NCBI RefSeq assembly: GCF_003334405.1
Contig: NZ_QOWM01000002.1
Source of the DNA: Escherichia coli
GTDB lineage: Bacteria; Pseudomonadota; Gammaproteobacteria; Enterobacterales; Enterobacteriaceae
Direction: 5' to 3' (one strand)
Length of the DNA stretch: 64,000 nt
The notes under the pieces are model-generated. The model had not been told where the DNA came from. It made no database searches and saw only the letters and a list, made by a program, of their open reading frames with translations. Shown piece after piece: positions 8,456-13,420 of this stretch. The position numbers were made by a program, and so were the translations under genes. Numbering within the stretch: position 1 is the stretch's first letter; each line of letters opens with the position of its first letter.

Positions 8456-8577
8456 CTTTCCCTTAGAGTCCTTTTTCAAATATACTGTGAAGACTTCGGC
8501 CTTCGTAGTGGGATTTGAAAAAATCCTTCTGGAAAGTGCTCCAGACCGCAGTTGCGGTTATAGGGTTCAGTTATATA

Positions 8578-8606
8578 AAGCCCCGATTTATCGGGGTTTT
8601 TTGTTA
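8578..8606 (+). terminator. Rho-independent terminator after metY
   Basis: aaaGCCCCGATttatCGGGGttttttgtt. Confidence 0.5.
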
Positions 8607-8661
8607 TCTGACTACAGAATAACTGGGCTTTAGGCCCTTTTTTTATGTCTTGGGGGTGGGC

Positions 8662-9114
8662 TTGTCCACATTAGAGCAAAAATTAACAGAGATGATTACT
8701 GCGCCAGTTGAGGCCCTGGGTTTTGAACTGGTTGGCATCGAATTTATTCGCGGTCGCACATCCACACTGCGCATCTATATTGATAGTGAAGATGGCATCA
8801 ATGTTGATGATTGTGCTGATGTGAGCCACCAGGTAAGTGCTGTGCTGGATGTTGAAGATCCCATCACCGTTGCTTATAACCTGGAAGTCTCCTCACCGGG
8901 TCTCGATCGCCCACTGTTCACGGCTGAACACTACGCCCGTTTTGTCGGAGAAGAGGTGACTCTGGTTCTCCGTATGGCGGTACAAAACCGTCGTAAATGG
9001 CAGGGCGTTATCAAAGCGGTAGACGGTGAAATGATCACAGTTACCGTCGAAGGTAAAGATGAAGTGTTCGCGCTGAGTAATATCCAGAAGGCGAACCTGG
9101 TTCCCCACTTTTAA
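8662..9114 (+). CDS. rimP: ribosome maturation factor RimP
   Basis: Track ORF 8650..9114; N-terminus [12 protein letters not shown] suggests a UUG/GUG start near 8656-8662; first gene of the nusA-infB operon. Confidence 0.8.
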
Positions 9115-9141: not shown

Positions 9142-10629
<1,488 letters not shown>

Positions 10630-10653
10630 TAAACTGTAGCAGGAAGGAACAGC

Positions 10654-13326
10654 ATGACAGATGTAACGATTAAAACGCTGGCCGCAGAGCGACAGACCTC
10701 CGTGGAACGCCTGGTACAGCAATTTGCTGATGCAGGTATCCGGAAGTCTGCTGACGACTCTGTGTCTGCACAAGAGAAACAGACTTTGATTGACCACCTG
10801 AATCAGAAAAATTCAGGCCCGGACAAATTGACGCTGCAACGTAAAACACGCAGCACCCTTAACATTCCTGGTACCGGTGGAAAAAGCAAATCGGTACAAA
10901 TCGAAGTCCGCAAGAAACGCACCTTTGTGAAACGCGATCCGCAAGAGGCTGAACGCCTTGCAGCGGAAGAGCAAGCGCAGCGTGAAGCGGAAGAGCAAGC
11001 CCGTCGTGAGGCAGAAGAATCGGCTAAACGCGAGGCGCAACAAAAAGCTGAACGTGAGGCCGCAGAACAAGCTAAGCGTGAAGCTGCTGAACAAGCGAAA
11101 CGTGAAGCTGCGGAAAAAGACAAAGTGAGCAATCAACAAGACGATATGACTAAAAACGCCCAGGCTGAAAAAGCCCGCCGTGAGCAGGAAGCTGCAGAGC
11201 TCAAGCGTAAAGCTGAAGAAGAAGCGCGTCGTAAACTCGAAGAAGAAGCACGTCGCGTTGCTGAAGAAGCACGTCGTATGGCGGAAGAAAACAAATGGAC
11301 TGATAACGCGGAACCGACTGAAGATTCCAGCGATTATCACGTCACTACTTCTCAACATGCTCGCCAGGCAGAAGACGAAAGCGATCGTGAAGTCGAAGGC
11401 GGCCGTGGCCGTGGTCGTAACGCGAAAGCAGCGCGTCCGAAGAAAGGCAACAAACACGCTGAATCAAAAGCTGATCGTGAAGAAGCACGCGCAGCAGTAC
11501 GTGGCGGTAAAGGCGGAAAACGTAAAGGTTCTTCGCTGCAGCAAGGCTTCCAGAAGCCTGCTCAGGCCGTTAACCGTGACGTTGTGATCGGCGAAACTAT
11601 CACCGTTGGCGAACTGGCGAACAAGATGGCGGTTAAAGGCTCTCAGGTCATCAAAGCGATGATGAAACTGGGCGCAATGGCAACCATCAACCAGGTTATC
11701 GATCAGGAAACCGCACAGCTGGTTGCTGAAGAGATGGGCCATAAAGTTATCCTGCGTCGTGAAAACGAGCTGGAAGAGGCGGTAATGAGCGACCGTGACA
11801 CGGGTGCTGCGGCTGAACCGCGCGCGCCGGTTGTGACCATCATGGGTCACGTTGACCACGGTAAAACCTCTCTGCTGGACTACATTCGTTCAACGAAAGT
11901 GGCCTCTGGCGAAGCGGGCGGCATTACCCAGCACATTGGTGCATACCACGTTGAAACTGAAAACGGCATGATCACCTTCCTGGACACCCCGGGGCACGCC
12001 GCGTTTACTTCAATGCGTGCTCGTGGTGCGCAGGCAACGGACATCGTAGTCCTGGTTGTTGCTGCCGACGACGGTGTGATGCCGCAGACCATCGAAGCAA
12101 TCCAGCACGCGAAAGCGGCGCAGGTACCGGTGGTGGTTGCAGTGAACAAGATCGATAAACCAGAAGCTGATCCGGATCGCGTTAAGAACGAACTCTCCCA
12201 GTACGGCATCCTGCCGGAAGAGTGGGGCGGTGAAAGCCAGTTCGTACACGTATCTGCGAAAGCGGGTACCGGTATCGATGAACTGCTGGACGCTATCCTG
12301 CTGCAGGCGGAAGTTCTGGAGCTGAAAGCGGTACGTAAAGGTATGGCGAGCGGTGCGGTTATCGAATCCTTCCTCGATAAAGGTCGTGGTCCGGTTGCTA
12401 CCGTTCTGGTACGTGAAGGTACTCTGCACAAGGGCGATATCGTTCTGTGTGGCTTCGAATACGGTCGTGTTCGTGCGATGCGTAACGAACTGGGTCAGGA
12501 AGTGCTGGAAGCGGGTCCGTCCATTCCGGTGGAAATCCTCGGCCTGTCCGGCGTACCGGCTGCGGGTGATGAAGTTACCGTTGTACGTGACGAGAAGAAA
12601 GCGCGTGAAGTTGCACTCTATCGTCAGGGTAAATTCCGCGAAGTTAAACTGGCGCGTCAGCAGAAATCTAAACTCGAGAACATGTTCGCCAACATGACCG
12701 AAGGCGAAGTTCACGAAGTGAATATCGTCCTGAAGGCAGACGTACAGGGTTCTGTCGAAGCGATCTCCGACTCCTTGCTGAAACTGTCTACTGACGAAGT
12801 TAAAGTGAAGATCATCGGTTCTGGCGTAGGTGGTATCACCGAAACCGACGCCACCCTGGCTGCGGCGTCCAACGCCATCCTGGTTGGCTTTAACGTACGT
12901 GCTGATGCCTCTGCACGTAAAGTGATTGAAGCGGAAAGCCTGGATCTGCGTTACTACTCCGTCATCTATAACCTGATTGACGAAGTGAAAGCGGCGATGA
13001 GCGGTATGCTGTCTCCGGAACTGAAACAGCAGATTATCGGTCTGGCGGAAGTTCGTGACGTGTTCAAATCGCCGAAATTTGGTGCCATCGCAGGCTGTAT
13101 GGTTACCGAAGGTGTGGTTAAACGTCACAACCCGATCCGCGTTCTGCGTGACAACGTGGTTATCTACGAAGGCGAGCTGGAGTCCCTGCGCCGCTTCAAA
13201 GATGACGTTAACGAAGTCCGTAACGGTATGGAATGTGGTATCGGCGTTAAGAACTACAACGACGTCCGCACTGGCGATGTGATCGAAGTATTCGAAATCA
13301 TCGAGATCCAACGTACCATTGCTTAA
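10654..13326 (+). CDS. infB: translation initiation factor IF-2
   Basis: 890-aa ORF; GTPase motifs [25 protein letters not shown]; Glu/Ala/Arg/Lys-rich repeat region near the N-terminus. Confidence 0.95.
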
Positions 13327-13337
13327 GGTTTTTAGGG

Positions 13338-13420
13338 TTCCATGCGGGATAAGGCGTTTACGCTGCATCCGGCATGGATTGCCTGATGTGACGCTGGCGC
13401 GTCTTATCAGGTCAACGTGA
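13338..13420. repeat. REP-like palindromic units between infB and rbfA
   Basis: gcgggataaggcgtttacgctgcatccggca and gcctgatgtgacgctggcgcgtcttatcaggtc resemble REP consensus. Confidence 0.45.

Follow-up and report, generated by a model that had tools for sequence, protein, structure and literature searches.

Results

The infB locus

The window, that is, the whole stretch of 64,000 nucleotides analysed here, comes from the chromosome of Escherichia coli. It contains infB, the gene of translation initiation factor IF2, as an open reading frame of 2673 nt (890 codons and a stop) which is 100% identical to the infB of many E. coli genomes; the gene was found in 5426 of 5426 complete genomes of the species. 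Around it lie, as expected, argG, tRNA-Met (metY), rimP, nusA, rbfA, truB, rpsO and pnp, and it occupies its place in the operon metY-rimP-nusA-infB-rbfA-truB. The primary start codon is preceded by AGGAAGGA and forms an anti-Shine-Dalgarno duplex of -6.5 kcal/mol; N-terminal peptides beginning with MTDVTIK are reported for it in PMC13245402. The coordinates of all the features are collected in Table 1.

Table 1. Features of infB and of its surroundings (positions are those of the window)
Feature	Position	Strand	Basis
rimP leader	8544-8644		Rfam
infB CDS (IF2-alpha / IF2-1, 890 aa)	10654..13326	+	ORF list, 100% identity to annotated infB
Primary ATG start of IF2-alpha	10654..10656	+	upstream element (given in the text) at 10641-10648
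Upstream tandem repeats, 24-nt period (8 aa, AEEQAKRE-like), domain I	10962..11119	+	Tandem Repeats Finder
A-rich, predicted unstructured region with both internal starts	11105..11165 (approximate boundaries)	+	opening energy
GCGGAA (codons 153-154), weak putative SD-like element	11110..11115	+	9 nt upstream of GTG158
GTG, codon 158: start of IF2-beta (IF2-2, 79.7 kDa)	11125..11127	+	sequence, conservation, literature
ATG, codon 165: start of IF2-gamma (IF2-3 / beta', 78.8 kDa)	11146..11148	+	sequence, literature
Downstream repeat array, 24/21-nt period (EEARR-like), domain II	11206..11289	+	Tandem Repeats Finder
naRNA4 (REP-type element between infB and rbfA)	13343-13413		Rfam
S15 leader	14926-15040		Rfam
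SraG sRNA, antisense between rpsO and pnp	15270-15441	-	Rfam
RNase P RNA	58381-58757		Rfam

Five elements of the window match Rfam families at the gathering score, and all of them are expected for this region of E. coli. In the same operon as infB, the mechanically listed reading frame of rimP starts at the TTG at 8650 while RefSeq places the start at the TTG at 8662, which is preceded by GGGGGTGGG; either way the start is not an ATG.

Two in-frame start codons between two repeat arrays

An earlier note on this DNA, made from the letters alone, had pointed to a GTG and an ATG inside infB as the known starts of IF2-beta and IF2-gamma. Both positions turned out to be exact: the GTG is codon 158 (10654+471 = 11125; nucleotides 472-474 of the coding sequence), the ATG is codon 165 (10654+492 = 11146; nucleotides 493-495), both are in frame, and the same two codons are named as the starts in PMC13245402, PMC12297416 and PMC3334882. 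Taken alone, the position of these codons is uninformative and does not rise above chance, since infB contains 45 in-frame start-like codons (21 ATG, 21 GTG and 3 TTG).

The earlier note had also placed the two codons just downstream of the repeat-rich N-domain. This holds for the upstream array, detected by Tandem Repeats Finder in two overlapping rows (10962-11018 and 11005-11119), which stops 6 nt before GTG158; the description was incomplete, as a second array follows downstream. Because repeats flank them on both sides (10962-11119 and 11206-11289), GTG158 and ATG165 lie in a unique spacer. The length of the upstream part may itself vary: in E. coli strain E5, isolated from a donkey, infB measures 2649 nt instead of 2673 and diverges just upstream of the position corresponding to 11101. 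The difference of 24 nt points to the absence of one repeat unit, and to a number of copies which is not fixed in E. coli; the codon numbers of the internal starts would therefore shift in this strain.

Accessibility of the mRNA and pairing with the anti-Shine-Dalgarno sequence

We calculated RNAplfold-type opening energies for the interval from -15 to +14 around each codon; these are thermodynamic predictions and not probing data. The predicted energy is 3.5 kcal/mol at codon 158 and 3.3 kcal/mol at codon 165, against a median of 11.0 kcal/mol for the gene. These are the two lowest values among the 45 in-frame start-like codons, and both fall below the 1st percentile of all codon positions. 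The same prediction made for the 38 orthologues retained below puts the codon-158 site at a median percentile of 0.8 and at 2.4 at most, in 38 of 38 cases, with a fraction of A between 0.35 and 0.57. By prediction, the two starts thus lie in the unstructured, A-rich kind of initiation region in which accessibility would be the driving feature.

The pairing with the 3' end of the 16S ribosomal RNA is a different matter. The best duplex with ACCUCCUUA reaches -3.5 kcal/mol for codon 158, where it involves GCGGAA, and -1.9 kcal/mol for codon 165. We found no GGAGG-like element with substantial anti-Shine-Dalgarno pairing 5-10 nt upstream of either codon, and several internal codons of infB which are not starts pair better than these two. 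Hence, we rejected the explanation of the internal starts by a strong Shine-Dalgarno sequence. As the pairing at codon 158 is weak when compared to that of the primary start (-3.5 against -6.5 kcal/mol), the role of GCGGAA as a Shine-Dalgarno element is only putative.

Conservation of the two codons

A scan with one genome per species gave 80 infB loci, of which we kept the 38 from Enterobacterales that align through the start region. Codon 158 is a start codon in every one of them: GTG in 36 and TTG in the other 2, Enterobacter sp. BIGb0383 and Acerihabitans arboris (loci L013 and L042), where the encoded amino acid becomes Leu and yet the start codon is kept. There are 69 conserved Val columns in this alignment, with an overall GTG share of 33%, and codon 158 is the only one of them in which every Val codon is GTG.

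The neighbourhood of this codon is constrained as well. Synonymous variation is absent from codons 153 (GCG), 154 (GAA), 157 (AAA) and 158 in the 38 Enterobacterales: GCG153 is found in 36 of the 36 taxa which have Ala in that column and GAA154 in 38 of 38, while Ala, Lys and Glu codons nearby (143, 148, 149 and 152) vary freely. Over the whole gene only 5.2% of 699 scorable codons are synonymously invariant, and four invariant codons within six are met at two places only, codons 3-7 and codons 153-158 (permutation p ~0.02, a cluster which is modestly significant when taken alone and comes from 38 phylogenetically related taxa). At the first of these places, codons 3, 4, 6 and 7 (positions 10660-10674) are invariant; this presumably reflects a constraint on the primary translation initiation region.

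In E. coli itself, 5299 of 5426 genomes show at least 99% identity over the 71-nt context of the internal starts. The two variants sampled (one of the 127 with 95-99% identity and one partial match) both keep both codons; one variant carries a synonymous change from AGC to AGT at codon 159, and the other has the infB shortened by 24 nt that is described above.

Codon 165 behaves differently from codon 158: among the 38 Enterobacterales it is ATG in 27, GTG in 2 and a non-start codon (GTA, AAA, ACT or CAA) in 9. The non-start codons occur in Shimwellia, Edwardsiella, Rahnella, Rouxiella, Photorhabdus, Providencia and Arsenophonus (they were noted at loci L010, L015, L018, L023, L035, L037, L046 and L075). 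IF2-gamma is therefore not universally maintained, and in the lineages deprived of a start at codon 165 a single short form of IF2 is predicted from the alignment. A constraint on the start codon beyond the one on the amino acid is found at codon 158, and partly at codon 165. Since ATG165 is the less conserved of the two, GUG158 would seem to be the selected site and AUG165 a secondary one.

Across Enterobacterales, the identity of codon 158 as a start codon, its GCGGAA…AAA context and the open structure around it are constrained. Laursen et al. (2002, Genes Cells) reportedly worked on enterobacterial infB before us and probably described much of this conservation. The comparative and structural footprints which we observe at the internal start are consistent with such earlier work.

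Published experiments on the internal starts

The genetic evidence comes from Madison et al. (PMC3334882). Their del2/3 allele, which combines g474c (GTG to GTC) and t494c (ATG to ACG), eliminates IF2-2 and IF2-3, and the two altered nucleotides map to positions 11127 and 11147 of the window. Their del1 deletion begins 14 nt ahead of the primary start codon and stops 32 nt short of GUG158, where IF2-2 starts; the short forms are still made from this allele (PMC3334882). Hence, the short forms are initiated internally and do not require the upstream start.

Ribosome profiling with an initiation inhibitor and N-terminal proteomics, the two checks proposed in the earlier note, both have published outcomes which bear out the assignment. 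Meydan et al. describe Ribo-RET peaks as "well-defined and highly-specific" at the known internal site of infB (bioRxiv 10.1101/520783), and in the TRAINSPOTTER supplement (PMC13245402) the rows of the GTG158 aTIS are flagged "Ribo-RET". The N-terminomics data of PMC13245402 give three initiation sites for infB, at +0, +157 and +164 codons, the internal ones being placed at K-12 coordinates 3315543 and 3315522, which lie +471 and +492 nt after the primary start. The supplement gives the 60-nt context as GCGAAACGTGAAGCTGCGGAAAAAGACAAAGTGAGCAATCAACAAGACGATATGACTAAA, and positions 11095-11154 of the window carry the identical sequence.

Among the infB peptides of this source (PMC13245402) are found one covering residues 158-175, which begins with Met where the genome encodes Val158, one beginning with SNQQDD… (159-), and others beginning with MTKNAQAEK… (165-, including 165-175) and TKNAQAEK… (166-); formyl-Met-derived peptides thus begin at both 158 and 165. 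Since the only possible source of a Met in place of Val158 is the decoding of GUG by the initiator tRNA, we concluded that this codon is read as a start.

The names alpha, beta and gamma are those in current use; IF2-beta and IF2-gamma differ by 7 residues only, and similar concentrations are given for the large and the small isoforms (PMC12297416). The internal starts of infB were among the first examples of in-frame internal initiation found in bacteria (10.1101/520783). They are real, they were read correctly from the sequence, and they are already known, being textbook sites. The primary papers on tandem in-frame initiation in E. coli infB are those of Plumbridge et al. (1985, EMBO J), Morel-Deville et al. 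(1990), Nyengaard et al. (1991) and Sacerdot et al. (1992).

Discussion

Origin of the short forms

We hold it as practically certain that GTG158 and ATG165 of this window are the pair of intracistronic initiation sites already characterised in E. coli infB, and nothing in the data considered contradicts their assignment as the starts of IF2-beta and IF2-gamma. One could still imagine that they are ordinary Val and Met codons which match the published positions by coincidence, or that the window carries an allele foreign to E. coli. The abundance of start-like codons in the frame and the weak Shine-Dalgarno pairing upstream of both sites would agree with this. However, the gene is fully identical to E. 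coli infB and its 60-nt context is the very one to which the peptides were mapped; Val158 is the sole Val column fixed as GTG, replaced only by TTG; both sites are outliers in accessibility; and coincidence is refuted by the mutational data (PMC3334882) as well as by the N-terminomics of PMC13245402, so that we grant it next to no probability. The same can be said of the idea, considered historically, that the short forms are cut from IF2-alpha by a protease near residue 158, or are translated from an mRNA of their own with its promoter within infB. A flexible, repeat-rich linker of low complexity would indeed be accessible to proteases, but a protease cannot account for the peptide from 158 which carries Met where Val is encoded (PMC13245402), and silent or missense changes at the two codons abolish the short forms (PMC3334882). 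As for a separate transcript, it would still need GTG158 and ATG165 as starts; moreover, a search of 10600-11400 gave 0 sigma-70-like promoters, against 0.4 expected from shuffled sequences, and we rejected the internal promoter. Both origins of this second kind are, in our opinion, extremely improbable.

A last alternative bears on the standing of IF2-gamma only, and it refines the explanation by internal initiation at the two codons without contradicting it. Selection may keep a single internal start, made of GUG or UUG at codon 158, the invariant GCGGAA…AAA context and an obligatorily unstructured region, and preserved in nearly all the Enterobacterales sampled, AUG165 being an opportunistic product of the same open stretch of mRNA, repeatedly lost, and IF2-gamma a dispensable by-product without a function of its own. 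The contrast between the codon 165 column, with ATG in 27 of 38 taxa and a non-start codon in 9, and the codon 158 column, which always holds a start, speaks for it, as do the negligible pairing of -1.9 kcal/mol and the small difference of 7 residues between the two products (PMC12297416). On the other hand, AUG165 is demonstrably used in E. coli, as seen with the mutants and the N-terminal peptides, ATG165 is kept in most of the sampled Enterobacteriaceae, Erwiniaceae and Pectobacteriaceae, and in 2 taxa it is GTG which replaces it. We regard this restriction of selection to codon 158 as a serious possibility, which nevertheless falls a little short of an even chance.

Three terminator-like matches on the minus strand are at the level of chance (3 against 1.8 expected) and were ignored.

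Proposed mechanism

Internal initiation at the two codons could proceed in the following way. The 30S subunits would bind the infB mRNA internally, independently of any translation coming from the primary ATG, by loading directly onto the short, A-rich and unstructured spacer between the two repeat arrays of 24-nt period. The site would be selected mainly by its accessibility, with the help of a weak contact between GGAA and the anti-Shine-Dalgarno sequence. The subunit would then choose either GUG158, which gives IF2-beta, or, 21 nt downstream, AUG165, which gives IF2-gamma; both products are devoid of domain I (residues 1-157 of IF2-alpha). As the two codons are only 21 nt apart, within the footprint of a single ribosome, they compete on one mRNA. 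GUG158 would here be the selected site, and AUG165 a secondary start taking advantage of the same open stretch.

Domain I has been linked to the binding of NusA (PMC12297416) and to functions in genome integrity (PMC3334882). Because the isoforms differ by this domain, the ratio of IF2-alpha to IF2-beta which is set at the internal site has physiological consequences.

Comparison with other genes and other bacteria

With respect to the IF2-alpha/-beta/-gamma system of E. coli, the sites described here are not an analogue: gene, species, codons and context are the same, this is the same locus, and no difference was found. In E. coli, clpB, mrcB, clpA, cheA and speA resemble infB in that an in-frame internal start gives an N-terminally truncated proteoform; the internal starts of such genes are visible as a Ribo-RET peak (10.1101/520783) and in N-terminomics (PMC13245402). 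Unlike these five genes, infB has a close pair of internal starts with a spacing of 21 nt, and the upstream one is a GUG.

Since the infB starts were already known, they are no discovery, and their use is rather that of a positive control for a genome scan. Three statistics which require the sequence only recover this site: the fixation of a start codon in a Val column, the clustered synonymous invariance and the conserved minimum of mRNA structure. The same three could serve for candidate internal starts in other genes.

In Bacillus, Pseudomonas, Streptococcus and Sarcina, as in E. coli, a single infB gene yields several forms of IF2 with different N-termini (PMC12297416); the positions of the starts in other bacteria are however not homologous to those of E. 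coli. In our alignment only Enterobacterales carry the motif around GTG158 (AAEK-D/E-K-V-S/T); Budvicia lacks it, and so do, outside the order, Aeromonas, Vibrionaceae, Pasteurellaceae, Shewanella and others. No conserved start was found at the aligned position outside Enterobacterales, and the accessible in-frame candidates there are inconsistent from one family to another.

Finally we must note two groups in which such candidates are seen. The infB genes of Aeromonas (loci L040, L041, L043, L045 and L052) have a very accessible in-frame TTG near the position of E. coli codon 110, with GAGGAAA before it in three of these five, and those of Vibrionaceae (L051, L068, L048 and L073) have accessible in-frame ATGs near the positions of E. 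coli codons 209 and 223. Judging from these sequences, the TTG of Aeromonas and the ATGs of Vibrionaceae are possible candidates for internal starts of independent origin.
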